A stretch of DNA of 64,000 nt from Dehalococcoidales bacterium (GTDB taxonomy: Bacteria > Chloroflexota > Dehalococcoidia > Dehalococcoidales > UBA5627), in NCBI GenBank assembly GCA_041656115.1, contig JBBAED010000004.1:10186-74185 (forward strand), given 5' to 3'. The notes beneath the pieces were generated by a model that was not told the DNA's origin, did no database searches, and saw only the letters and a program-made list of their open reading frames with translations. The translations under genes were made by a program, and so were the position numbers. Shown one piece after another: positions 1,622 through 60,052 of the stretch (positions are counted from its first letter, which is position 1; every line of letters begins with the position of its first letter).

Positions 1622-3259
<1,638 letters not shown>

Positions 3260-3299
3260 TTCCCGCATAAAAAACCGCACAAGGTATAGACAAACTAAC

Positions 3300-3334
3300 A
3301 GGCGCGACGTTTCGATGTCGCGCCTGTTTTTATT
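3300..3334 (+). terminator. rho-independent terminator after groEL
   Basis: GC-rich hairpin AGGCGCGAC-GTTTCGAT-GTCGCGCCT followed by TGTTTTTATT. Confidence 0.6.
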
Positions 3335-3402
3335 CTTAGAAGATATGTTTGACTGCAAAATCTATCGCTTACCCATTGACAATACTGTCCGGGGCAAGCG
3401 TG

Positions 3403-4755
3403 TTAAAGCTGCAGTAATTTTTCCAAAGGTTCCTCTCGGCTGATAGGGCCCACAACCGCTAATTTCAGAAGGTCGGCGGCCATTAACTCGTTAGCAATTT
3501 GCCAAACATCTTCCGTGGTAACCGCATCTATTTGAGCCACCACATCGCTAACGCCAAGGATATTGTTACTTAAGATTTCCTGAGTCCCCAGCCAGCTTGC
3601 CATATTACGATTATCTTCCAGCCGCAAAAGAAGCCTGCCTTTGGCCATTTCCTTAGCCTTGGTAAGCTCCTCTTGTGAAACCTTGTTTTTCTTGAAATCG
3701 GCCATTTGATCCGTAATAACCTCAATAGCAAGCGGTAACTTTTGCGGCTCAACCCCGGCATAGACAACCAAAGACCCCGTATCGGATAAATGCTCGGCGT
3801 AACTGGCAATGGTATATGCCAATCCGCGCTTGTCGCGAACCTCGTTAAAAAGACGGCTGCTCATACCGCCGCCGAGAATAATATTTAAAATATCCAAATG
3901 GTAGCGTTTGCGGTCAAATCTGGATAAGCCGGGCAATGCCAGGCACAGGTGTGCCTGTTCTATTTTCCTTTTCTCAATCTTTACCGCCTCACAGTCCTTA
4001 AACTTATAGCTTTTAAACTTGTGAGAATGGTCTTTTTTATTCCATCCGCCCAGGCATCCCTTAACCGCCTCAACCGCCTCATCGTGCCCGATGTTACCGG
4101 CAATCGATACAACCGAGTTGGACGGCAGGTAACTTAAGCGCATATATTCCAAAATGTCTTCGCGCGATATTGCCGCTACCGTTTTCTTGGTTCCGGCGAC
4201 ATCACGTGCCAGAGGGCTTCCGTACCACAGGGATTTGTCAATCAGCCGGTTAACCTTTTGGTCGGGGGCATCATTGGTCATTTTGATTTCTTCAAAAATA
4301 ATTTGGCGTTCTTTTTCAATATCCGCCGGGTCAAGTTTCGCATTAAGCAGCATATCGGAAAGAACATCTAAGGCAACATCAAAGTGAGCGAAAGGAACTT
4401 TGTTCCAATATACGGTCATCTCTTTATCCGTTCCGCCGTTCAAAACACCGCCCACGCCTTCAATCGCCTCTGAAATCATTCTTGTTTCGGGGCGTTTGGC
4501 GGTTCCTCTAAAAAGCATATGTTCAATAAAATGCGAAATTCCGCCAACCTTTTCTTTTTCATAACGTGAACCCACACCGGTAAAAATACAAACGGAAACC
4601 GAATGAGACTGCGGCATATTTTCCGTAATTATTCTTAATCCGTTATCCAATACTGTTTTTTGATACAAAATGCCGCCTCCTTTTTTATTTGAGGCCATTT
4701 TATCACCGATTGGCTCAAAAGTACCAATTAAAAAGATAAAAAGACAAGAGTGCAA
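3403..4755 (-). CDS. M16-family zinc peptidase (pitrilysin/insulinase-like)
   Basis: 450-aa ORF with the inverted zinc motif HFIEHMLFRGT (HxxEH) and a long M16 core. The true start is probably the internal MASNKK (about 4698). Confidence 0.8.
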   Translation of the reverse strand: MHSCLFIFLIGTFEPIGDKMASNKKGGGILYQKTVLDNGLRIITENMPQSHSVSVCIFTGVGSRYEKEKVGGISHFIEHMLFRGTAKRPETRMISEAIEGVGGVLNGGTDKEMTVYWNKVPFAHFDVALDVLSDMLLNAKLDPADIEKERQIIFEEIKMTNDAPDQKVNRLIDKSLWYGSPLARDVAGTKKTVAAISREDILEYMRLSYLPSNSVVSIAGNIGHDEAVEAVKGCLGGWNKKDHSHKFKSYKFKDCEAVKIEKRKIEQAHLCLALPGLSRFDRKRYHLDILNIILGGGMSSRLFNEVRDKRGLAYTIASYAEHLSDTGSLVVYAGVEPQKLPLAIEVITDQMADFKKNKVSQEELTKAKEMAKGRLLLRLEDNRNMASWLGTQEILSNNILGVSDVVAQIDAVTTEDVWQIANELMAADLLKLAVVGPISREEPLEKLLQL

Positions 4756-4916
4756 TGGGCGGGTTAAATCCGACGCGATAATTAAATTTCGGATTAAAAT
4801 CTATTGACAACGGAAGGCAACAGGACTAATATCGATAAGGACAAATTGTTAAAAATAGGCTGCGGTGCCAACGGGATTTGTCCGGATAAAATTGCAAAAA
4901 TAATACTTAAAAAGGG

Positions 4917-5249
4917 GTGAGCGGAATGCCAACTGGTAAAAGAAAGGGCGTAGCCATGATGATTGGTGCAATGGCAATTCTTGCAATTGCGCTACTGGTC
5001 TTTACAACACTCAACACTTGGGGCGAATGGATTGCAAGTTACCTCAACAACATATCCATGGATGGCTTGCCGCCGGAAACCCAAGCGGCAGCCGGTGCAA
5101 TGTTTGGGGCTTTAAAACTCTCGCTTGGAGGAATGATGGCACAGGTTGGCGGGTACATGAAAGTTGTCGATAATTTTGTGGGAATTCTTTTAACTTTAGT
5201 TTCGATGGGATTATTTACCAACGGCTTTATCACCGTAAAGGAAAATTAA
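4917..5249 (+). CDS. hypothetical small membrane protein
   Basis: 110-aa ORF with two predicted hydrophobic helices and a plausible RBS. I do not recognise a family. Confidence 0.4.
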   Translation: MSGMPTGKRKGVAMMIGAMAILAIALLVFTTLNTWGEWIASYLNNISMDGLPPETQAAAGAMFGALKLSLGGMMAQVGGYMKVVDNFVGILLTLVSMGLFTNGFITVKEN

Positions 5250-5309
5250 TCCCGAATAAGTATCAAAAAAAGGAGCTGTCTCAAAGTTCTCGATTGGTTA
5301 TTTTTGTCT

Positions 5310-5339
5310 TTGACAAAAATACCGCTCCCGTAGTATCAT
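5310..5339 (+). promoter_or_regulatory. candidate promoter of the tRNA cluster (TTGACA ... TAGTATCAT)
   Basis: Consensus -35 TTGACA 15-18 nt upstream of a TA-rich -10-like hexamer, about 20 nt before tRNA-Trp. Confidence 0.3.
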
Positions 5340-5360
5340 ATTGCTGCTAGATGGGGCCTT

Positions 5361-5437
5361 AGGAGTGTAGCTCAGTCCGGTAGAGCAACGGTCTCCAAAA
5401 CCGTCGGTCAGGGGTTCGAATCCTCTCACTCCTGCCA
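5361..5437 (+). tRNA. tRNA-Trp(CCA)
   Basis: Cloverleaf with acceptor AGGAGTG/CACTCCT, anticodon loop CUCCAAA, T-loop GGTTCGAATCC, encoded CCA. Confidence 0.85.
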
Positions 5438-5438
5438 T

Positions 5439-5524
5439 GCCGAGATGGTGGAATGGCAGACACGCTAGCTTGAGGGGCTAGTGAGCGCAAGCTTGTGAGA
5501 GTTCAAATCTCTCTCTCGGCACCA
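5439..5524 (+). tRNA. tRNA-Ser(UGA)
   Basis: Acceptor GCCGAGA/TCTCGGC, anticodon loop CUUGAGG, long variable arm typical of Ser, encoded CCA. Confidence 0.85.
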
Positions 5525-5533
5525 AATGGAAAT

Positions 5534-5608
5534 GCGGAAGTAGTTCAGCGGTAGAATGCCTCCTTGCCAAGGAGGAGGTCGCGAGTTCGAATCTCGTCTT
5601 CCGCTCCA
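5534..5608 (+). tRNA. tRNA-Gly(GCC)
   Basis: Acceptor GCGGAAG/CTTCCGC, anticodon loop UUGCCAA, T-loop GAGTTCGAATCTC, encoded CCA. Confidence 0.85.
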
Positions 5609-5615
5609 TCTAAAC

Positions 5616-5690
<75 letters not shown>

Positions 5691-5879
5691 CTGGCTTACC
5701 CTAAAGTTTTGCTCTTACTTTTCTCTTGTAGATTTTTTGATTGCCTTGCTGCCTTTAAAGCCCTTCCGCCCAAACTCAATGTCCGTTTCTTTTACATAAC
5801 ACTTTCAAATAGTTTGATAGTTTATGACGTTACCCTTGCAACTCTGAGCGCCCTCTTTTTGTTATTCCGCGCCCCCCTC

Positions 5880-6425
5880 TGTCGTTCTGAGCGTAAGCGA
5901 AGAATCTAGGGGCTAGCGGATAGTGCAGCGTTCGGTTACGGGTTTTACGTTAGAGCGATTCCTCTTTCATGATTCTGAGGCAACCTCATAGTCCAAATTC
6001 CCCGTCCTCCTAGATCCTTCATTTCATTCAGGATGACAAACCACTCGTTCGCCCTGAGCCTGTCGAAGGGTCCAACGAACGGGTGGTCTAAGGGTTACTA
6101 TTCGTCTGCCGTTATGGTTCGACAAGCTCACCACGAACGGCTGGGGGGCCCTCCTTTTGTCATTCTGAGCGTAAGCGGAGAATCTAGGAGTTGGCGGATA
6201 GCGCACCGTTCGGTAACGGATTTTATGGTAGGACGATGCCTCTTTCCTATTGCCAAAGATACCTAATAGCCTGTATCTCTCATCCTCTTAGATCCTTCAT
6301 TTCATTCAGGATGACAAAAATAGTAACGTCTTTGCGAGGAGCGAGCCGTTAAGCGAGCGACGCGGCAATCTCTAAGGAATTTAATTTATATTAGATTGCT
6401 TCGCTGCGCTCGCAAAGACAAAAAG
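5880..6425. repeat. nest of MITE-like intergenic repeats (families A, B, C) #1
   Basis: Contains GTCATTCTGAGC...TTCAGGATGACAAA units, a CGTTCGCCCTGAGCCTGTCGAA...TTCGACAAGCTCACCACGAACGG unit and a GTCTTTGCGAGG...CTCGCAAAGAC unit. All recur at six other loci in the window. Confidence 0.85.
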
Positions 6426-6528
6426 AGAGTGCTCTGAAAGACAAGAGAGAACAAGAAATCTATTTGATGAACAACACCTGGCAAAATCAATATTGACAGG
6501 AATATCCGAGGATTGCAGTAAACTTTTT

Positions 6529-6942
6529 TTACTTAGCGGAATCTTTTTTTAAGTTAAATCCGATTGTACTTAAAATCGGTGCGCTCAAAATAATAAATGC
6601 CCACAACAAATCTGTGTAATTGTTTAAACCCAAAGGTTCCGCCAGTGCAAAAGGCAGCACCCCGCCTACAACCGCCCCGATTAACCCGAACAACAACGAG
6701 CCTTCATAACGTAACTTCTTTTTAAAAAAAAGAATACCGATAAAAACACCGAGGGGATATCCGAAAGCAAGCCCCAGCACAGCACCTATCAGCCCGCCCC
6801 AACCGTCACCACCTTGCAGCAATAACGCCATCAGAAAGGCCGCAAGAATACCGAAAACGAACCCCGCAAAAGAGGTTCCGATAATCATCGTTACATATTT
6901 TGACGTTTTTTGCATGTCGTAAAAATTAAAAAGTTGAATCAT
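6529..6942 (-). CDS. hypothetical integral membrane protein
   Basis: 137 aa, four predicted TM segments, glycine-rich helices. No recognisable catalytic motif. Confidence 0.5.
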   Translation of the reverse strand: MIQLFNFYDMQKTSKYVTMIIGTSFAGFVFGILAAFLMALLLQGGDGWGGLIGAVLGLAFGYPLGVFIGILFFKKKLRYEGSLLFGLIGAVVGGVLPFALAEPLGLNNYTDLLWAFIILSAPILSTIGFNLKKDSAK

Positions 6943-6975
6943 AACCCGTAAGGTTGTAAAATATCTTGTTGGAAA

Positions 6976-7060
<85 letters not shown>

Positions 7061-7187
7061 CCGACAAAGAACCTCAACTTCAAACTTTTAACCCTCGAAT
7101 TTGCATTATACGTCCATTCATGACAGTTCCAAGAGACAACCGGATGCCTCTACTGGCTGTTATTAAAACATTTTAATTGATTAATTA

Positions 7188-8129
7188 TTAACTGACAGAA
7201 TTACGGTTTTTGAAGAATAGTCTAGACGTGTTGCATATTTTACACTGGATGTAAAATTCGTTCTTACGCTTATTTAATCTTAATAGGGCATTACACCCAG
7301 GGCAACGTTCTTTAATTGATTTTGTCTTATCACATTTATTGCATTTAAAGTAGTAACCATGTTTTCCGTACATAATACTCAAATCATCACTGTTACAATT
7401 AAAGCAATAAATCCCAGTTCTTGCTTTTGAAATTGGTAAGGAACGCTTTGCTTCAATATTCTTCGTGGGAATGCTGCCTTTTGCTGTATGTCGAGAACAT
7501 AGAAATCTGGCAAGTTCGTTTTTTGTGTCGAAATCAAGTTTAACCGGAAAGGGTTTTGAACTAATTATTAAAACTGAGTCAAGTTTTTTATATTCTTTAA
7601 TAATATTATTTATCTCACTGGGGATTAAATCAGCTTTAAAAACATTATCATTTTTTATATCACTAGGTCTATCAATTACACCGGTATCCGATATTGCCAC
7701 AAGTATATCAATGGGAATTTTTTCATAAGTATTACGCCCAAAAAGTATATTAGTAAGCTCTTTCGTTGGTTTTAATCCACTTTCTATTAAATAGTTCCGT
7801 AAAAATGATGCTTGCCTTTTCGCTTGCTCAACTGGAGAGGCTAATCCAATGTTAAAATCAGTACGTTGCCATTCTCCAAATTCATTGATTTTTATCTCAC
7901 CTAAAACACTTTTGCTTTCAACTATTATCATTCCGTAATCGTGAATTACCAGATGGTCAATTTGCGCGACGTCATTGTCCATTTCTAATCTAATACCGTT
8001 TATAATCAGCACATCTTTAGAATACTTAAATTCTCTGCTTAAATAGAAGGCCATTGTTTTTTCTGCATTATGCCCTGCTTTTGTAAATTTATCCGAAGAA
8101 TTAATTGAGTCAACGTCTTTAATAATCAA
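7188..8129 (-). CDS. NERD-domain (nuclease-related, PD-(D/E)xK-like) protein with C-terminal tandem zinc ribbons
   Basis: 313 aa. The N-terminal 120 aa fit a NERD domain (…FYLSREF…HLVIHDYGMIIVESK). The C-terminus carries four CxxC pairs (CFNC…CNKC…CPGC…CKIC). The gene is markedly AT-rich compared with its neighbours. Confidence 0.7.
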   Translation of the reverse strand: MIIKDVDSINSSDKFTKAGHNAEKTMAFYLSREFKYSKDVLIINGIRLEMDNDVAQIDHLVIHDYGMIIVESKSVLGEIKINEFGEWQRTDFNIGLASPVEQAKRQASFLRNYLIESGLKPTKELTNILFGRNTYEKIPIDILVAISDTGVIDRPSDIKNDNVFKADLIPSEINNIIKEYKKLDSVLIISSKPFPVKLDFDTKNELARFLCSRHTAKGSIPTKNIEAKRSLPISKARTGIYCFNCNSDDLSIMYGKHGYYFKCNKCDKTKSIKERCPGCNALLRLNKRKNEFYIQCKICNTSRLFFKNRNSVS

Positions 8130-8338
8130 TCCGTCCCTCCAGAGGCTAACAACCAGCCGTCAATTATCATGTTATTACTTGTCGAAGCAGTTTACGTAAT
8201 GATATTAATACAGGCTTGTTTATTATGCAAACTTTTGTAAAAACATATCCAATAAGTATGCCTTTAATAAGATTGCAGATGGGGTCGGATAATAAATTGA
8301 GAAGACCTTAACCAAATGTTGTCAGGGGTTGACAGTGG

Positions 8339-8773
8339 TTATTTTGCTTTCTTTTCGGAAACAAAGGGTTTTTTCCACCACGGAATTTTAGGAGTGGTCA
8401 ACAGTTTTAATTGCTCTATCTGGCTTTCCAGATTACGAATACGTTCCGTTGCGATACCGAGCTGAGCGGCCATGCTGACGTTCTTTTCCTGAAGCTCTCG
8501 TAAAAGACTTATACTTTGCACCAGTGCCTCGCCGGGGTCATAGTTTGCCATCTGGGAAAGAACTTTTTCCGATTCATCGGATTCGGGGGTTTCTTCGGCA
8601 GGGCTTAAATCCGAAGGTAATTCCAAAATACGATACTCCTGACCGAACTGTCCTGTAATCAGCTCGGCCTGAATCCTTCCGGACTTAATGTAACGCCTGA
8701 TGGTTCTGGTGGATACCCCCAGCGCCTCGGCAGCTTCGTTAATGTTCATATTTTCAAATACACCCATTGACAA
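8339..8773 (-). CDS. excisionase/MerR-like helix-turn-helix DNA-binding protein with coiled-coil tail
   Basis: NINEAAEALGVSTRTIRRYIKSGRI matches the excisionase-family HTH. The C-terminal half is heptad-rich (LRELQEKNVSMAAQLGIATERIRNLESQIEQL). The real start is probably an internal Met (8767 or 8749). Confidence 0.7.
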   Translation of the reverse strand: MSMGVFENMNINEAAEALGVSTRTIRRYIKSGRIQAELITGQFGQEYRILELPSDLSPAEETPESDESEKVLSQMANYDPGEALVQSISLLRELQEKNVSMAAQLGIATERIRNLESQIEQLKLLTTPKIPWWKKPFVSEKKAK

Positions 8774-8886
8774 GTCTATAGTTATTTTTCTTTTTTGTCA
8801 ATGGGGTAAAGCACCATTATAAACACCGAGGCCGGACAAATCTCTATGATCAGTCCGGCCTCTAGGTTTTTCTTGTTTCCGTGAAA

Positions 8887-21364: not shown

Positions 21365-21719
21365 TGGTGGAGACGGGGGAGAATCGAACTCCCCGTCCAA
21401 TAAAGACTGTCCTGAATATACTACAGGTTTAGTTAGCAGATTAAGCTCACCTTACCGGCCTCTGCTAACCGAGTTCGGTAAGGCCAGCCGATGGATCTTT
21501 CGTTACTCGTATCGGCATTCGGTTAACGGCACCCCGACATCTCGACACCCAATCCCTACCCGCCGGGGTGAGGTAGAGTTGGATGCGCTAGCTGTTTTTA
21601 GCCAGCGAGAACCATTTCAGGTTCGCCATTTATGTTTTTGCCACCTTTTTAATGAGAGCTGCGACAATCTCAACCTGCAATCCAGTAACTAACCTTTACT
21701 GTCGAAACCTTGCGTCCCC
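21365..21719 (-). ncRNA. ssrA: tmRNA (SsrA)
   Basis: The minus strand begins GGGGACGCAAGGTTTCGAC and ends GGGGAGTTCGATTCTCCCCCGTCTCCACCA (tRNA-like domain with CCA). The internal tag reading frame GGC GAA CCU GAA AUG GUU CUC GCU GGC UAA follows a GGCAAAAACAUAAAU leader. Adjacent to smpB. Confidence 0.85.
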
Positions 21720-53689: not shown

Positions 53690-54019
53690 CTAATCCGAAC
53701 GAATCATCACCAGCATCATTTTAAAGCGTTCCGTTGCCTTTAGCGAATGCGGCTGGTTTGCCGGCATAATTATAAACTCACCGCGCCGAACTGTTAGCGG
53801 CTCTCCTGAAATAGTAACTTCGGTTTCTCCGTCCGCCACATATACAAACGCATCATAGGGAGCCGTATGTTCGCTTAAACCTTGCCCTTTATCGAAGGCA
53901 AACAGTGTAATGGTTCCTGTTTTCTTGTTAAGAACGGTTTTTGATACCACCGAACCTTCCTGGTAGTCAATTAAGTTTTCAAGATCCAATGCTTTTCCGA
54001 TTAACGTACTCTCACTCAT
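53690..54019 (-). CDS. cupin-domain protein
   Basis: 109 aa. The GLSEHTAPYDAFVYVADGE and IIMPANQPH segments fit the two cupin motifs. Confidence 0.7.
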   Translation of the reverse strand: MSESTLIGKALDLENLIDYQEGSVVSKTVLNKKTGTITLFAFDKGQGLSEHTAPYDAFVYVADGETEVTISGEPLTVRRGEFIIMPANQPHSLKATERFKMMLVMIRSD

Positions 54020-54158
54020 ACAACACTCCTTAAAATTAACTCTTTGGCTATCGATTTACCAACCGATATTATAACATTTTAAAGAGGCATTTATAAATTG
54101 AGGCAGGGTTTTCGGCTCATTTCGAGTTTATAAACAGGGTCGTCCGAGAGCCGTAAAA

Positions 54159-54668
54159 TTAATTAATCTTTAGTAAATCAATTTTGAAGGTTAAATCTTT
54201 GCCTGCCAGAGGATGATTCGCATCAATAGTAACATCTTCATTTGAGGCGGCAATAACCTGCACCTGCGAAATATATCCACCGCCGGTCGACATTGTGAGA
54301 TAATCGCCAACCTTTACATTCTCGCCGCCTTGTATTTGGCTTCTTTTGATTGTGATTATAAGGTCTTCTTGATATTCCCCGTAAGCATTCGCTGCGGCAA
54401 TAGTAATTGTTTTCGTTTCTTTTTCTTTCATCCCGATAATTGCCGCCTCGAAATCGGAAATCATTGAACCTTTGCCAAGCACAAACTCAAGCGGCTGACC
54501 TCCGACCGATGTTTCGTATACGATACCGTCGGGAAGCGATAAAGTATAATCCACCTTCACCGTATCTCCGTTTTGGGCGATAACGGAACTGCAAGAAGAT
54601 AGAACTGCCAAACCAAAAAGGGATACGAGAACCAAAACAGAGGCGATAACCGGACGAACTTTTTTCAA
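54159..54668 (-). CDS. FKBP-type peptidyl-prolyl cis-trans isomerase lipoprotein
   Basis: Signal peptide plus lipobox (LSSCSS), FKBP core GDTVKVDYTLSLPDGIVYETS…LEFVLGKGSMISDFEAAIIGM. Confidence 0.8.
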   Translation of the reverse strand: MKKVRPVIASVLVLVSLFGLAVLSSCSSVIAQNGDTVKVDYTLSLPDGIVYETSVGGQPLEFVLGKGSMISDFEAAIIGMKEKETKTITIAAANAYGEYQEDLIITIKRSQIQGGENVKVGDYLTMSTGGGYISQVQVIAASNEDVTIDANHPLAGKDLTFKIDLLKIN

Positions 54669-54704
54669 TTTTTTACTCCCGCTTAAGATTGCATTACGGA
54701 AAAT

Positions 54705-54893
54705 TTAATTTATTTTAATGGCGCCGGTAGGGCATTTTCTTTCACAGCCGCGTAACTTGTCGCACTTTTCTTGTTCGGTTACGGAACAAGTACCGGTTTC
54801 TTTATCCATATACAATATCTGCTGAGGGCATATTTTAATGCATACGCCGCAGCCGGAACAGAGTTCTTTATTGATTGATACGATTTCTTTCAT
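54705..54893 (-). CDS. 2x[4Fe-4S] ferredoxin
   Basis: 62 aa with CSGCGVCIKICP and CDKLRGCERKCP clusters. Confidence 0.7.
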   Translation of the reverse strand: MKEIVSINKELCSGCGVCIKICPQQILYMDKETGTCSVTEQEKCDKLRGCERKCPTGAIKIN

Positions 54894-55107
54894 AAACGGT
54901 ACGATTATAACGCAGGCAGAATATCTATCAATTATAACTGTTGTTAAGAGGGCTGTCTAACACAAGGTTATTTTATCCCTAAAGCGCAATTTGGAATGAA
55001 GTCGGGAAACGAGAAAGGGTATTGTAAAATTAAAATTCGGTGCTATGATTGGATATAAGAAATTTAAGATTTATTATCGAAGCTTACAGGATAAGGAGAC
55101 CATCAAA

Positions 55108-55254
55108 ATGCCTAAACCGTGTGAAAACTGCCCAATCAAACGCTACTCCGATAAAAAACCGAACTCGTTTATTGCTAAAATTTGGAAATGGCACACAAGC
55201 TGGTGCCCGGGGTGGAAATCCTATCAAGCTGAACTAAACAAGAAAGCGGATTAA
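55108..55254 (+). CDS. hypothetical small Cys-containing protein (48 aa)
   Basis: RBS AAGGAGA 8 nt before the ATG. MPKPCENCPIKRY…WHTSWCPGW. The longer ORF-track version 55045.. is probably over-extended. Confidence 0.35.
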   Translation: MPKPCENCPIKRYSDKKPNSFIAKIWKWHTSWCPGWKSYQAELNKKAD

Positions 55255-55285
55255 GCGCCGAATCAGAAAAGATTAATAGGTTTTT

Positions 55286-55320
55286 ACCTCTTAATGTGGG
55301 AATGTTTTTTTGTGTATAAT
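55286..55320 (+). promoter_or_regulatory. promoter module copy A (ACCTCTTAATGTGGGAATGTTTT…GTGTATAAT)
   Basis: Extended -10-like GTGTATAAT 30 nt upstream of the 55351 start codon. Near-identical to copy B at 57438..57471. Confidence 0.4.
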
Positions 55321-55350
55321 TTCACTGTAATTCGTTTAGGAGGATAGCTA

Positions 55351-55842
55351 ATGACAACTGAGATTGGGGAGTATATGGTAGGAGCCTGTTTGAAGCTCCT
55401 AGATGAGTTTCAATGTGATTTTGTTGAATATAATATCCGACGTCCAGGTGGTAAGTTAGCTGGTTTGAAAGAAATTGATGTTATCGGACTGAAGCTTAAA
55501 GATAAAGAGGCATATCTTTGTGAAGTAACAACTCACTTGGGCGGGTTATTGTATGTTAATAATACTAACTCGATAAAAAGAATTAATGACAAATTTAATA
55601 ATCTCCGTGATTATGCGGAAAAATATCTGTCAGAGTATAAACCACGATTTATGTTATGGTCGCCAAAAGTAAGCGCAAGTGTTGCCAATGAATTAGAAAA
55701 GATTGATGGTTTAGAACTGGTTATCAACGGTAGATATACTTCATATATTAGGTTGTTAGAGGATGAAGCAAGGAAGGGTACACACGATACGGGGAATCCT
55801 GTCTTCCGGGTATTACAGATATTGGGACATTTAGTAAAATAG
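55351..55842 (+). CDS. hypothetical protein, possible degenerate PD-(D/E)xK-like fold
   Basis: 163 aa, RBS TAGGAGGA. Conserved-looking E…EIDVIG…CEVT arrangement resembles a restriction-endonuclease-like core but lacks the catalytic Lys. Assignment is tentative. Confidence 0.45.
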   Translation: MTTEIGEYMVGACLKLLDEFQCDFVEYNIRRPGGKLAGLKEIDVIGLKLKDKEAYLCEVTTHLGGLLYVNNTNSIKRINDKFNNLRDYAEKYLSEYKPRFMLWSPKVSASVANELEKIDGLELVINGRYTSYIRLLEDEARKGTHDTGNPVFRVLQILGHLVK

Positions 55843-55864
55843 AATATCAGCCATAATCGATAAC

Positions 55865-55897
55865 AAAAAAAGTAGCAGCGACTGGAATTGAACCGGT
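55865..55897 (-). repeat. partial duplicate of the 3' end of tRNA-Met (T-arm plus acceptor 3' strand plus U-tract), putative att repeat
   Basis: AAAAAAGTAGCAGCGACTGGAATTGAACCGGT is identical over ~30 nt to the 3' end of the intact tRNA at 58070..58141, then diverges. Confidence 0.6.
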
Positions 55898-56073
55898 AAC
55901 TAAGAGTTTATAAGTTGCGGTCTCATATTTAACTTCCCTTGCTTAACAAATAGTTTTTTAGAGAGCCTGTTATATATTTCAAAAATAAAAGATACACAAA
56001 ATGGCTTTAACGGGGTTATTTTTGCAGTATAGTGCGTTTGGGAGTGGTATAATTAACATTGAGAGGTGGGAAT

Positions 56074-57177
56074 ATGGCAACACTAAGATTGAAATTTAGC
56101 GTCACCTTAAAAGAAAGCAAATTACATTTCTCACATCACGGTCCCTTATTTCATAGATGGCTCCCTAATGGAGAAAATGATGCTATAGTAAAGCGGAATC
56201 AAGAAAAAGGGGTGGAAATAAAGTTTTGGTTCGAACGATGCGGCTTTGAGAACCATGGCTTCATCGAATTCGATGAAAACCGACGAGAAGTTGATCTCGA
56301 TATAATGGCCAAACAAGGGGTTCTTGATGCAGGCCCTCTTAAGGGAATGCTCGTAATACAAGATGTGAAGCAAGAAGAAATAGATGCTTTGCAACTGAAC
56401 AGAAGTGGCAGCCCTCATTACGAATCGCTTGGAAAGAGAATTGTGGCAATACTTTACCCAGAAATCTCACGCATTATAAACATTCTTCGCACAAATTTTG
56501 GACAATATTGGATTCGCCCCTTAGAGAGATGGAATTCGCACGAACACTTATTAGGCAGCTATTGCGGCTTAACACTTGGTCTTAAGTGGAACGTTGATGG
56601 AAGTGATAATTGGGCAGACTTTATTCCAAACAACCCTGAGGGTATTTTTAGAGTAATACTTGGGTTAGAAAAAGATTTCAAAGAATATATTACACAAGAT
56701 GATTGGGCCACTCTTAGTGGGATAATTGCAAACGAATATAGTCCTTCAACTGCTGCACTCTTGCTTGCGCAAACACATCAATATTTAGACCAAGGCAACA
56801 TAAAATATGCATTTATTGAAGGGATCACTGCTCTTGAAATAGCAATTGAAGAATTTATTCGAGGAAATATCATGGGAAACAAAAAACTTGAAAAGGGCAT
56901 TGCAGGCTTTTGGAATCTTCCTCTTAATACAAAAATGATTACTATATCAACAACACTGGGCAATGTTGATTCTGATGATATTAATAACACCATTGAAGCA
57001 ATCGAGACAAGAAATAAAATTGTCCATGATAACTATAACCCCCTTGATAGCCTAAGACCCCAAGTTTTGAGTTTGCTAAAAATAACTTCAGCATTGATTT
57101 CGGGTCCAGAATTGAGGTTTCCAACAATAAACCCTGGTAATGCCTTAAAGCCAAAAGAGACTTGGGAAGATTCCTAG
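56074..57177 (+). CDS. hypothetical protein with C-terminal HEPN-like domain (R-x4-H motif), candidate abortive-infection/defence effector
   Basis: 367 aa, RBS GAGGTGGG, upstream TGGTATAAT extended -10. The C-terminal alpha-helical ~120 aa carry ETRNKIVHDNY (R-x4-H-x-x-Y). AT-rich. Confidence 0.45.
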   Translation: MATLRLKFSVTLKESKLHFSHHGPLFHRWLPNGENDAIVKRNQEKGVEIKFWFERCGFENHGFIEFDENRREVDLDIMAKQGVLDAGPLKGMLVIQDVKQEEIDALQLNRSGSPHYESLGKRIVAILYPEISRIINILRTNFGQYWIRPLERWNSHEHLLGSYCGLTLGLKWNVDGSDNWADFIPNNPEGIFRVILGLEKDFKEYITQDDWATLSGIIANEYSPSTAALLLAQTHQYLDQGNIKYAFIEGITALEIAIEEFIRGNIMGNKKLEKGIAGFWNLPLNTKMITISTTLGNVDSDDINNTIEAIETRNKIVHDNYNPLDSLRPQVLSLLKITSALISGPELRFPTINPGNALKPKETWEDS

Positions 57178-57437
57178 CGCCTCATTTATATATGTAATTA
57201 CGATTTTGAATATATTCGGCGCTATTTCTAACATTGTAGACTGAGCAATTCGCCTAGCCCCGTCTAATAACCAAGACGGAGAATTAAAACCCTGCTCCTG
57301 TTATCCTCGGCCTTATGAGAGGGTAGAAATTAGTCAATCGCCTGTTTTGTAATAGTTTTAGACATCGAGGCCATTCTTCTTCTCATTTAGTTGCGAGAGA
57401 TGATAGCCTCGAACTACTCGAAGGTCAATAGCTTTTC

Positions 57438-57471
57438 ACCTCTTAATGTGGGAATGTTTTGGGTGTATAAT
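57438..57471 (+). promoter_or_regulatory. promoter module copy B
   Basis: ACCTCTTAATGTGGGAATGTTTTGGGTGTATAAT, 32 nt upstream of the 57504 start codon. Differs from copy A at only ~3 positions. Confidence 0.4.
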
Positions 57472-57503
57472 AATCTCATAAGTAAATTGTAGGAGTTGTA
57501 TAG

Positions 57504-58064
57504 ATGGGTAAAATAAAAGAACGAACAAATGCTGAAAGAGAAAATGTTGTTAAACCTTTAAAGAAATGGTTAGAGTCACAGAATACAAAGTGGGAGACCT
57601 ATATGCCGCCACATCCCACATCAAAGGGCTGGGATTTAGAGGCTAGTAGGCCAAATTGCGACTTGTTAATAGAAGCTAAATATATTCAACGGTCCTTTAT
57701 TGCTTCATTTTCTTATTTGGTAACTTCTCCATTACCAGACCGTAAACAATATTTTGCAGTCAGAAAACCTAAAAAATGGTGTGCACACCATTGTTGGGCT
57801 ATAGGATCATCAAATTATAAAACAAGAGAACTTTACCAGTTGATATTTGATTATCTAATACGTTGTCCAACTTTTTGGAGACATTATAAAGAAGATTTGG
57901 GTATGAAATATGTATACTTTGTGATAAATGGAAAGGTAGCCAAAGTCGATTTTGGTAAATTATTAGATTATTCTGAAACTTATAAAAAAAATACTGCTGA
58001 AAAGACAACGGAGGGAAAAAGAGCTATAGCTGAAGATCTAATGAAAAATGTTAAGTACACATAA
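57504..58064 (+). CDS. hypothetical PD-(D/E)xK-like nuclease-fold protein
   Basis: 186 aa. GWDLEA …(14 aa)… CDLLIEAKY gives a D…ExK arrangement with typical spacing. AT-rich. The gene ends 4 nt before the tRNA-Met 3' end. Confidence 0.45.
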   Translation: MGKIKERTNAERENVVKPLKKWLESQNTKWETYMPPHPTSKGWDLEASRPNCDLLIEAKYIQRSFIASFSYLVTSPLPDRKQYFAVRKPKKWCAHHCWAIGSSNYKTRELYQLIFDYLIRCPTFWRHYKEDLGMKYVYFVINGKVAKVDFGKLLDYSETYKKNTAEKTTEGKRAIAEDLMKNVKYT

Positions 58065-58069
58065 AAAAG

Positions 58070-58141
58070 TAGCAGCGACTGGAATTGAACCAGTGACCAA
58101 GGGCTTATGAGTCCCCTGCTCTACCTCTGAGCTACGCTGCC
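58070..58141 (-). tRNA. tRNA-Met or tRNA-Ile2 (CAU anticodon), no encoded CCA
   Basis: Minus strand GGCAGCGUAGCUCAGAGGUAGAGCAGGGGACUCAUAAGCCCUUGGUCACUGGUUCAAUUCCAGUCGCUGCUA. Cloverleaf with anticodon loop CUCAUAA and an unusual A:G at the loop-closing pair. Confidence 0.75.
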
Positions 58142-58590
58142 ACGCCAAAGACTTATTCTAATGTCTGAAATATTGTATTGATAAGACGATTTCTTGTCAA
58201 CTATCGGCAAGGTTTACTTTTTCTCATACTCTTTACAATAAACCGCATGCGGACGCTCCCTGTTATGGCAGGCACTGCGCCAGTTCCATTTACAGTTACC
58301 GCAAAGAACAACGTTTATCCCGAGTGCTCTTTTTATATTAATGATTATCCGATTTTTTAAGGGAATTTGTTGCATTTTTTTACGAATTTACTATAAAACT
58401 GATTAAGAACAGTGCTATTATAACAATTCAAACAGAGAAACGTAAAGCTCCGATAAAACATTACCGAATCGTCCGTAAGTCCCGCTACGAATTACGAGCG
58501 CGCTTTCTTTTTGGTATAATACAGGTTATTGCAAATCGTATTGTTTTTACTTATATCACATAATCTGCTTACGAAAAAAGGTTTTTATAG

Positions 58591-59250
58591 ATGAATACGT
58601 CGTATCGCTTCGTTATTATCAGCGCGGTTTTTGTAACCGCATTAATAACCGCCAATGTAATGTCGGTTAAAGTCATCGAACTTGGTTCTTTAATAATGCC
58701 GGCGGCGGTAATTATATTCCCGCTAAGTTACATATTCGGTGATATCTTAACCGAGGTTTACGGCTACCGCTGGGCACGCCGGGTTATCTGGCTCGGGTTC
58801 GGATGTAACCTGATATTTGTTCTTTTTACCTACCTGGGGCAGTTAATGCCGGCAGCTTCCTTTTGGACCGACCAGCAAGCATACGAAAGCATACTGGGCT
58901 ATGTCCCCAGATTGTTACTGGCTTCCCTGTGTGGCTATCTGGTAGGGGAATTTATTAACTCTTTTATAATGGCAAAGATGAAAGTGGCAACAAAGGGACG
59001 CTGGCTTTGGGCACGCACCATCGGCTCAACAGTTTTCGGAGAAGGCTTGGATACAGCCATATTTGTTATAATCGCCTATATCGGAACGGCTTCCTTTGTT
59101 CCGATAATGATTCTTTATCACTGGCTGATAAAGGTCGGAATTGAAGTTCTGGCAACGCCTCTAACCTATAAAGCGGTCAACTATTTAAAAAGAACGGAAA
59201 ACGTGGATGTTTTTGATGAAAACACCAATTTTAACCCTTTTAAATTTTAG
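58591..59250 (+). CDS. yhhQ: queuosine-precursor transporter (YhhQ/VUT family, DUF165)
   Basis: 219 aa, 6 TM helices. SVKVIELGSLIMPAAVIIFPLSYIFGDILTEVYGY matches the YhhQ N-terminal signature. Confidence 0.75.
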   Translation: MNTSYRFVIISAVFVTALITANVMSVKVIELGSLIMPAAVIIFPLSYIFGDILTEVYGYRWARRVIWLGFGCNLIFVLFTYLGQLMPAASFWTDQQAYESILGYVPRLLLASLCGYLVGEFINSFIMAKMKVATKGRWLWARTIGSTVFGEGLDTAIFVIIAYIGTASFVPIMILYHWLIKVGIEVLATPLTYKAVNYLKRTENVDVFDENTNFNPFKF

Positions 59251-59278
59251 ATGAATTTCTGAGTAAGGCAATAAAGCT

Positions 59279-60052
59279 GTGAAAATAAAATTTTTGGGCG
59301 CACACAATACACAAACCAGAGATATCAGACCGGCCGGTTTGGTGATAGACGGGATATTAGCCTTGGATGCCGGCGGATTGGCATCCGGCCTTACGCTTGA
59401 AGAACAACTTGCCCTTAAAGCAGTGCTGATTACTCATCAGCATTACGACCACATTAAAGACTTGCCGCTTCTGGGAATGAACCATCTTCTAAACCGCAGT
59501 TCGTTTGATGTTTACTGCCTGCCCGAAACAGGCGATATTATTTCTCGCTATTTAATGGACGGCACCCTCTATTCCAGATTTTTGGAAAAAGGCCAAAGAG
59601 AAAAAGCGGTCATTGAACTCAACACGATTGAACCGGATAAAGTTAGGCAAATTGAAGGCTACTCTGTGACCCCGATAACGGTGCCTCACGGCGTTCCCGC
59701 TGTCGGATATCTGGTATCCGCCGCAAGCGGGCAATCATTTTTTTATACCGGTGACAGCGGTCCGGGGCTTGCCAATAAATTAAAGGATTATTCGTTTGAT
59801 TTACTGATTACCGAAGTCACCGCTTCCGACGAGTATATTGAAACATGCCGCAAGAGAGGGCATCTTTGCCCATCGCTTCTTAGGGAAGAGCTTATAACAT
59901 ATACAAAGCTCAGAAGTTCTATTCCTAAAGTGATGACGGTCCATATGAATATTTTCCAAGAAGAACAAATCCGTAACGAACTAAAAAAAGTGTCCGAAGA
60001 GCTGGGGGTTTTAATTGAACCGGCTTGCGAAGATATGATTGCGGAAATTTAA
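59279..60052 (+). CDS. metallo-beta-lactamase-fold hydrolase
   Basis: 257 aa with the MBL motif ITHQHYDH and downstream H/D ligands. Confidence 0.75.
   Translation: MKIKFLGAHNTQTRDIRPAGLVIDGILALDAGGLASGLTLEEQLALKAVLITHQHYDHIKDLPLLGMNHLLNRSSFDVYCLPETGDIISRYLMDGTLYSRFLEKGQREKAVIELNTIEPDKVRQIEGYSVTPITVPHGVPAVGYLVSAASGQSFFYTGDSGPGLANKLKDYSFDLLITEVTASDEYIETCRKRGHLCPSLLREELITYTKLRSSIPKVMTVHMNIFQEEQIRNELKKVSEELGVLIEPACEDMIAEI

Follow-up and report, generated by a model that had tools for sequence, protein, structure and literature searches.

Tandem accretion of elements at the 3' end of a target gene has been documented in several systems. In Dehalococcoides, the ssrA genomic islands (ssrA-GIs) are tandem islands with direct repeats of the ssrA 3' end, inserted in the T-loop region, and some of their units lack integration genes and have been proposed to be cis-mobilizable (McMurdie et al. 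2011, PMC3146451). Cis-mobilizable elements (CIMEs) retain attL and attR, lack integration and transfer genes, are arranged in tandem where a target gene has its 3' end and form composites that can be mobile as a unit; they are defined as decay products that ICEs (integrative and conjugative elements) or IMEs (integrative and mobilizable elements) leave in conjugation-proficient Firmicutes (Pavlovic 2004; review PMC5704250). In the tycheposon tRNA islands of Prochlorococcus, successive integrations push older elements inward, and partial tRNAs mark the older events (Hackl et al., 10.1101/2020.12.28.424599). Here we examine a 2.2-kb islet downstream of a tRNA-Met(CAU) gene in a Dehalococcoidales bacterium, within a 64,000-nucleotide stretch of assembly GCA_041656115.1 (contig JBBAED010000004.1, positions 10,186 to 74,185; hereafter the window). 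With a probability of roughly 0.7, we consider the islet to be the newest unit in a stack of small integrase-less cassettes at this tRNA, a composite resembling a CIME whose cargo genes are independent of one another.

The locus shares with the ssrA-GIs the class of organisms, tandem units downstream of a small-RNA gene and repeats of its 3' end. The target, however, is tRNA-Met and not ssrA; a tmRNA gene is present in the window (21365-21719, tag GEPEMVLAG), but its 3' end is unrepeated there, unlike in the Dehalococcoides ssrA islands. The units are 0.4-2.2 kb in length with one or two genes, whereas the ssrA-GIs are multi-kb islands with a six-gene integration module around the integrase DsiB, and the cargo is nuclease- or toxin-like instead of rdhA. 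Like a CIME, the islet keeps attL and attR and is devoid of integration and transfer genes, although no parent ICE or IME is known here and the units are far smaller. With the tycheposons it has in common streamlined genomes and serial integration at one tRNA, but those carry a tyrosine recombinase and replication modules, neither of which was seen in the arrays here. Integron arrays are similar in their ordered, mostly single-gene units, their short site repeat, their fixed primary site and their toxin-antitoxin-like and nuclease cargo. In our case, on the other hand, there is no adjoining IntI and there are no imperfect palindromes of the attC type, the repeat is the 3' end of a tRNA, and the cassettes have promoter-like sequences of their own. 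Tandem accretion at a small-RNA gene is known in kind; what is new with respect to the documented cases is scale and uniformity, with 16 units all of approximately 2.2 kb or less, mostly of one or two genes and without a recombinase. An unannotated single-gene HEPN family is an addition.

Results

A displaced copy of the tRNA-Met 3' end bounds the islet

The islet segment (55895-58068) contains genes for proteins of 367 and 186 residues and lies between two copies of the 3' part of tRNA-Met.

58069..58141, minus strand: tRNA-Met(CAU), the integration target (attB/attL side), identified with ARAGORN and by Rfam RF00005 (58070-58141, 65.6 bits); orthologous in 36 related loci
58063..58112, minus strand: proximal att copy, from the anticodon stem to the tRNA 3' end with a six-T trailer (repeat search, sequence)
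55866..55915, minus strand: distal att copy, the displaced tRNA 3' part, 29 bp exact and then 67% identity back to the anticodon stem

A first-pass annotation of the window, made from the letters alone, had noticed that the tRNA 3' end is duplicated in the same orientation and had read this as the attL/attR signature of insertion into a tRNA 3' end. The duplication is genuine, a direct, co-oriented repeat downstream of an intact tRNA. Positions 55866-55894 and 58063-58091 are identical over 29 bp, comprising A6 and the last 23 nt of tRNA-Met, and this 3' 23-mer occurs exactly twice in the window and 0 times in 100 shuffles. The copy is somewhat longer than the length first given, about 30 nt, and reaches the anticodon stem, 55866-55915 and 58063-58112 being 88% identical over 50 nt and constituting the sole family that the repeat finder reported at the tRNA. 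The proximal copy overlaps the stop codon of the 186-aa gene.

The distal copy was aligned with tRNA-Met in tRNA orientation. Identity was 5/26 (19%, the random level) over positions 1-26, 16/24 (67%) over positions 27-50, which run from the 5' strand of the anticodon stem to the T stem, and 23/23 over positions 51-73, from the T arm onward, the last followed by the six T; no trace of the tRNA 5' third was found in the alignment. Because identity runs 19%, 67% and 100% along the tRNA, the distal copy begins at the anticodon stem. As this onset is sharp, the repeat is better explained as a site carried by an incoming element than as a duplicated tRNA gene. There is no third copy of the tRNA-Met 3' end in the window (best match 16/23), nor is the 3' end repeated for any of the other six tRNA/tmRNA genes of the window. 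An Rfam scan of 54000-60000 returned the tRNA only.

tRNA-Met is a hot spot among related loci

For comparison, 80 Dehalococcoidales loci were fetched via the flanking Vut_1 (YhhQ-like) gene (loci outside the window are given L numbers). The Vut_1 gene of the closest relatives likewise has this tRNA-Met upstream of it. The 36 loci with an orthologous tRNA were searched with each locus's own tRNA-Met 3' 23-mer, allowing three mismatches or fewer in 23 nt, with 720 shuffles as the control. As a result, 15 extra copies were found in 11 of the 36, all co-oriented and downstream of the tRNA, against 0 in the shuffles. Counting the tRNA itself, L014 carries three copies and L021 five.

The copies are of two classes, both of which extend to the 3' end. 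Those of L021, L063, L046 and the window begin at the anticodon stem and measure about 47 nt; those of L012, L016 and L018 begin at the T arm and measure 24-35 nt. Sublocations within tRNA genes, the anticodon loop and the T loop, are reportedly used by different integrase subfamilies, and we take the two classes at tRNA-Met to correspond to these. Successive copies are 369-1935 bp apart in the relatives and 2197 bp apart in the window. The cargo between them differs in every genome and includes hicAB-like gene pairs (recognized by eye), a universal-stress-like protein and membrane proteins. The first-pass annotation had proposed comparing the tRNA-Met neighbourhood in relatives, and the outcome agrees with an insertion: homologues of the 367- and 186-aa proteins, as well as of a 163-aa protein encoded next to the islet, were absent from all 80 loci, and near-empty sites were present, the 3' end of tRNA-Met being abutted by an FKBP gene in two loci (L016, L032) and by a cupin gene in a third (L018).

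The repeat copies degrade with distance from the tRNA. In L012, tRNA-Met ends in ACCA and the displaced copy retains a CCA-less trailer, CTACTTTTTTATT, which directly follows tRNA-Met in L014, L016, L046 and the window. The trailer pattern in L012 thus gives the direction of insertion: the newcomer supplies the tRNA-proximal 3' end, and the old end is pushed outward. The tRNA-Met of the window has no encoded CCA (3' end at 58069-58075), the five other tRNA genes of the window (at 5437, 5524, 5608, 5690 and 7060) encode it, and the orthologous tRNA-Met of L012 and L075 does end in ACCA. These differences in CCA suggest that incoming cassettes may periodically replace the 3' end of tRNA-Met.

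The core-looking cupin and FKBP genes shift position between close relatives. The cupin orthologue in L018 (3006-3446) lies between exact tRNA-Met 3' copies 418 bp apart, and the FKBP orthologue in L032 (792-1399) is bracketed by copies 585 bp apart. Because the orthologues are bracketed in this manner, the cupin and FKBP genes neighbouring the islet in the window (53690-54019 and 54159-54668) may be old cassettes of the same array.

Tyrosine recombinases adjoin the same tRNA in other genomes

That the islet contains no recombinase had already been stated in the first-pass annotation, and this now extends to the whole 64-kb window, in which neither Pfam nor tblastn and phmmer searches with four tyrosine recombinases identified one. 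None was detectable in any repeat-bounded cassette of the relatives. Two more distant relatives, L082 (261-1244) and L075 (142-1125), encode 327-aa tyrosine recombinases approximately 105 bp from the tRNA-Met 3' end. These are 76% identical to one another and match Phage_integrase (PF00589) with E values of 2e-25 and 4e-25; their best NCBIfam matches are Xer-type, including 'tyrosine recombinase/integron integrase', all below cut-off. Further recombinases were found in L020 and L025. Because integrases adjoin the orthologous tRNA in L082 and L075, elements with tyrosine recombinases do target tRNA-Met within this order. Three observations, namely that the distal copy starts sharply at the anticodon stem, that the relatives are polymorphic and that integrases occur at this tRNA in other genomes, together support the view that the repeat is an att-type duplicate resulting from site-specific insertion into the 3' part of tRNA-Met.

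The islet is most likely a composite of two cassettes

The cargo of the islet consists of the following.

56074..57177, plus strand: 367-aa protein with a beta-rich N-terminal domain (residues ~1-220) and a C-terminal HEPN domain (~226-341) with R313-N314-x3-H318
57421..57471, plus strand: copy 2 of a promoter-like 52-nt element (PR), TTAATG-N18-TATAAT with a TGTG extension, before the 186-aa gene (repeat search, alignment)
57504..58064, plus strand: 186-aa PD-(D/E)xK-fold protein, the att-proximal gene of its own small cassette

Both open reading frames (ORFs) had been recognized in the first-pass annotation as AT-rich genes between the repeats, with the motifs ETRNKIVHDNY and WDLEA...DLLIEAK, and genes and motifs are as described there. 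With a GC content of 0.365, the islet falls below both the window (0.44) and the flanks (0.43-0.45). The two genes are 326 bp apart, and the gap holds the separate promoter-like element.

Among the homologues of the 186-aa protein for which DNA could be obtained, the closest (61% identity) is encoded in L001. A tRNA-Met-like 3' fragment is present 18 nt past its stop codon and a second direct copy precedes the gene, giving a single-gene cassette of 0.76 kb. In the region upstream of this gene, GAAGGTCAATAGCTTT and similar flanking sequence are common to L001 and the window, starting at ~57360 in the latter. As the L001 cassette stands alone, the promoter-like element, the 186-aa gene and the att site constitute a unit of their own. 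Because the 186-aa gene is a separate cassette in L001 and its pairing with the 367-aa gene is not conserved, two cassettes most likely make up the islet, which would itself be a single unit within a larger array. The insertion described in the first-pass annotation stands, but the islet is probably not the single bounded unit assumed there, and the array reaches beyond the coordinates that were given for it.

We can envisage how such a stack would arise. An incoming circle would bring with it a tRNA copy that begins at either the anticodon stem or the T arm and runs through the 3' end, and a tyrosine recombinase, encoded elsewhere or since lost, would cross it with the tRNA gene. The tRNA would be rebuilt with the 3' end of the element, and the old 3' end would be displaced to the far side as a direct repeat; repetition of this site-specific recombination into the 3' part of tRNA-Met would build the stack. 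The islet itself would comprise two once-separate cassettes, moved or retained together through accretion of the CIME type: a HEPN cassette and the unit of promoter, 186-aa gene and att site, with the nuclease travelling at the att-proximal end of its own cassette. The repeat that once separated the 367-aa gene, as the second cassette, may have decayed to a weak trace at ~57360-57390. Alternatively, the two cassettes may have moved together after accretion.

The order of the cupin, FKBP, 163-aa, 367-aa and 186-aa genes was reproduced in an independent Logan assembly. A Logan contig from SRR8449813 (L176, 6712-6736) breaks 24 bp past the stop codon of the 186-aa gene, within the tRNA 3' end; this could represent population heterogeneity at the junction or an effect of assembly.

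The 367-aa protein represents a HEPN family with a novel N-terminal domain

The ORF of the 367-aa protein opens mechanically at TTG 56059; judging by homologues and by a ribosome-binding site, GAGGTGG, the ATG at 56074 is the more likely start. The first-pass annotation had proposed a C-terminal HEPN domain with an R-x4-H motif, and the domain proved genuine in both fold and conservation. An AlphaFold model (pLDDT 88, pTM 0.86) contains the four-helix up-and-down HEPN fold, and across an alignment of 47 sequences (32-57% identical to the query) R313 and H318 never vary, while N314 is conserved in at least 90%. The N-terminal domain contains the invariant motifs FHRWLPxG, GQYW and WDSR.

We identified 62 full-length homologues (31-57% identity), none with a Pfam domain. 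Their distribution is patchy, spanning Chloroflexota, Thermoproteota, Ignavibacteriales and a Priestia plasmid. Among their source names, the only informative ones are Dehalococcoidales, one Thermoproteota archaeon and one Ignavibacteriales metagenome-assembled genome, while the single match in PLSDB is a protein annotated as hypothetical (WP_252282362.1, 38% identity) on a 29-kb plasmid of Priestia megaterium. No matches to the family were obtained in Pfam, NCBIfam, PHROGs, PADLOC, PDB sequences, BFVD or IMG/VR. The 163-, 367- and 186-aa proteins were all without a match in PADLOC-DB v2 at a threshold of E <= 1, and PDB sequences likewise yielded nothing when searched with a profile of each family. 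Foldseek with the 367-aa model against the viral structures of BFVD gave nothing below E 0.3. That the first-pass annotation did not recognize a described system agrees with the lack of matches in PADLOC, Pfam, NCBIfam and PHROGs. The protein differs from the HEPN proteins of abortive infection and related systems (AbiV, the C-terminal domain of AbiA, HepT toxins and Csm6) in matching no HEPN or Abi entry of Pfam or PADLOC, and in the N-terminal domain of about 220 residues, which has no recognized relative in the databases searched and is considered novel.

The gene neighbourhood of the family was examined in a separate set of 80 metagenomic loci holding its members. Only the query family was common to all, and the next largest cluster was found in 4 loci. 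The 135 proteins encoded within two genes of a family member are dominated by no Pfam family (top count 3), and contexts obtained by exact-sequence look-up were likewise without a conserved neighbour. No nucleotidyltransferase family was present among the 25 commonest neighbour families listed for the 80 loci, in distinction from HepT/MntA, in which an MNT antitoxin gene would be expected to adjoin. A defence-related neighbour was found in 5 of 19 inspected loci when ten proteins were scanned, a count taken with no formal background control and accompanied by many housekeeping genes: AbiGi and HNH (L096), GmrSD (L127), Cas1 (L139), a type IIG restriction-modification protein (L164) and an Mrr-type nuclease (L171). 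When more neighbours are taken in, mad2/mad3, DUF4145 and two integrases appear as well, again along with many housekeeping genes. No general tie of the family to tRNAs was observed: approximately 430 kb contained five tRNAs, none adjacent to a family member, and no duplicated 3' ends. In L171, the gene at 6860-7981, which adjoins a homologue of the 367-aa protein, encodes an Mrr_cat domain followed by an SFRNKLVHGE region, a possible nuclease-HEPN fusion.

Judging from the model and the conserved motif, the 367-aa protein is most likely a self-contained homodimeric HEPN ribonuclease whose own N-terminal domain would serve as sensor or inhibitor, holding the ribonuclease inactive until it is triggered, for instance by infection or stress. 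Its fold and motif make it a candidate for a single-gene toxin or abortive-infection protein.

The 186-aa protein is a rare PD-(D/E)xK-fold protein

The nuclease-like D...ExK core that had been proposed for the 186-aa protein is present in a PD-(D/E)xK fold. The core is alpha-beta-beta-beta-alpha-beta, with E on helix 1, D on strand 2 and ExK on strand 3, as in I-Ssp6803I, XisH and archaeal Hjc. E11, D44, E57 and K59 are invariant in the family, as judged on a small sample of only 5 sequences with 52-62% identity. The family is rare, as the word-indexed search yielded 5 sequences; a profile scan of 1.8 billion representatives gave 53 matches, 16 of them at E <= 1e-30, and no relatives were found in IMG/VR or PLSDB. 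Three large proteins of 1076-1884 aa (P0198, P0215 and P0217) match profile residues ~36-83 in 8-22 separate stretches, which may indicate a repeat protein with a similar beta-hairpin but is probably an artefact.

Four contexts of the family were available outside the window: L001, the contig of P0065 at JGI and, for P0067, L002/L003 and L004. Across its contexts, the gene lies beside an att site twice and has a tyrosine integrase after it once (L003), which fits a gene moving along with integrative elements. From its fold and conserved residues, the protein is most likely an active PD-(D/E)xK DNA endonuclease.

A shared promoter-like element and probable older cassettes adjoin the islet

Two features flanking or lying within the islet are absent from the first-pass annotation, the 52-nt repeat before the 186- and 163-aa genes, and the 163-aa gene itself as a nuclease-like accessory gene. 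The features outside the islet are these.

55108..55254, plus strand: small Cys-rich ORF (48 aa from MPKPCENCP), with an orthologue in L012 at 80% identity
55269..55320, plus strand: PR copy 1, 90% identical to copy 2, before the unrelated 163-aa gene (repeat search, alignment)
55351..55842, plus strand: 163-aa accessory gene (o163), ending 23 nt before the distal att copy

The pattern of the PR element is AATAGSTTTT-N6-TTAATGTGGGAATGTTTT-N3-GTGTATAAT. A third copy lies in L012 (5590-5640) before the orthologue of the small Cys-rich ORF (the o69 orthologue), and the element is partly common to L001 (~5905-5925). Wherever it was found, the layout is PR, a small gene and a tRNA-Met 3' copy. Among the 80 related loci, the motif occurs in L012 only, together with a fragment in L018, and the exact motif gave 0 matches in JGI metagenome contigs. 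Because the L012 orthologue displays this layout, the small Cys-rich ORF is probably an older cassette.

The family of the 163-aa protein numbers more than 350 members and is labelled by JGI as 'Holliday junction resolvase-like predicted endonuclease', with invariant E7, D43, E58 and H62. The 163-aa protein shares no sequence similarity with the 186-aa protein, although both genes follow the promoter-like element. No homologue is present in the 80 related loci. One is found in another Dehalococcoidales genome (L091), in an island after tRNA-Pro (2711-8800) at which no repeated tRNA-Pro 3' end was detected. That island also holds a 209-aa protein with a KGRNDYHH motif (RNxxxH, HEPN-like). An ORF of 186 aa located upstream of this o163 homologue was considered and rejected, since it is no homologue of the 186-aa protein and the match in length is coincidental.

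On the other side of the tRNA, a CorA-like gene of approximately 320 codons (GMN motif) lies between tRNA-Met and Vut_1 in the five closest relatives (L012 6644-8000, for example). The corresponding interval of the window (58142-58590) is only 450 bp, apparently due to a deletion of about 900 bp. An MBL-fold gene at 59279-60052 matches Anti-Pycsar_Apyc1 (PF23023) weakly; since it adjoins Vut_1 in nearly all 80 relatives, it is probably a housekeeping gene.

Discussion

One alternative to the preferred reading is an active capture platform resembling an integron, as opposed to debris of larger elements, in which the tRNA-Met 3' copies are sites for a dedicated, chromosomally resident small tyrosine recombinase that excises, captures and shuffles single-gene cassettes. 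The 16 repeat-bounded cassettes of 369-2197 bp, mostly with one or two genes and none with a recombinase, would suit such a platform, as would the movement of the core-looking cupin (L018) and FKBP (L032) genes between close relatives. So would the presence of orthologous Xer-like recombinases next to the tRNA in two genomes and of one promoter-like element before three unrelated cassette genes. If it were true, tRNA-Met would be the primary site, cassettes would end in a tRNA 3' copy and some would start with the shared promoter module, and an Xer-like recombinase acting in trans, like those of L075 and L082, would excise and re-insert them; a recombinase-poor lineage could in this way shuffle defence, toxin and even core-like genes. 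However, neither the window nor the closest relatives have a recombinase adjoining the tRNA, the copies degrade away from the tRNA as passive remnants would, and deletion between direct repeats along with decay of larger elements could give the same pictures. Decay and deletion within an integration hot spot are the more economical explanation, and we regard the capture platform as improbable, if worth bearing in mind.

A further proposal is that the 186-aa nuclease serves the cassette itself, either as an XisH-like excision factor or as a homing-type endonuclease that cuts the unoccupied tRNA-Met site. We consider such a role conceivable but rather unlikely.

The first-pass annotation had favoured a defence module in which the HEPN and PD-(D/E)xK proteins act as one two-gene abortive-infection system on a single islet. 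The genes are indeed adjacent, co-oriented and between the same two repeats, the catalytic motifs of both products are intact, and a HEPN homologue in L171 adjoins an Mrr-type nuclease. The families, on the other hand, do not co-occur outside the islet. No gene of the 367-aa family adjoins the 186-aa homologue in any of the four other contexts; no 186-like gene recurs as a neighbour of the HEPN family, whose largest neighbour cluster is confined to 4 of its 80 loci; the 326-bp gap gives the 186-aa gene a promoter-like element of its own; and in L001 that gene alone forms the cassette. The context data thus largely refute the pairing, which we judge very improbable; a module is not supported, and the two genes are better regarded as independent passengers. 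The remaining explanation, a leftover of a tandem tRNA duplication, which the first-pass annotation had named as a possible source of the repeat, or else a chance match, draws on scattered matches in the 5' part under forced global alignment and is dismissed by the random-level 5' third with its abrupt rise at the anticodon stem, by the absence of the 23-mer from shuffles, by the recurrence of the same truncated copy 15 times in relatives, always downstream and co-oriented, and by low-GC intervening DNA that the relatives lack.

On the preferred reading, a stack of small cassettes with independent cargo, tRNA-Met is a lineage-wide hot spot in uncultured Dehalococcoidales, where integrase-less cassettes of very small size build up and are exchanged. 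The picture drawn from ssrA islands in Dehalococcoides is thereby extended, and a parallel exists in the tRNA islands of a further streamlined lineage, Prochlorococcus. The locus also illustrates that adjacency within one islet is no proof of a two-gene system. The 367-aa protein reveals a family outside Pfam, NCBIfam, PADLOC and PHROGs, in which a novel N-terminal domain is joined to a HEPN domain with an intact catalytic motif, and which is always encoded by a lone gene. Members occur in bacteria and archaea, and the culturable species Priestia megaterium carries one on a plasmid, which makes the family a testable candidate for a single-gene abortive-infection protein or toxin.

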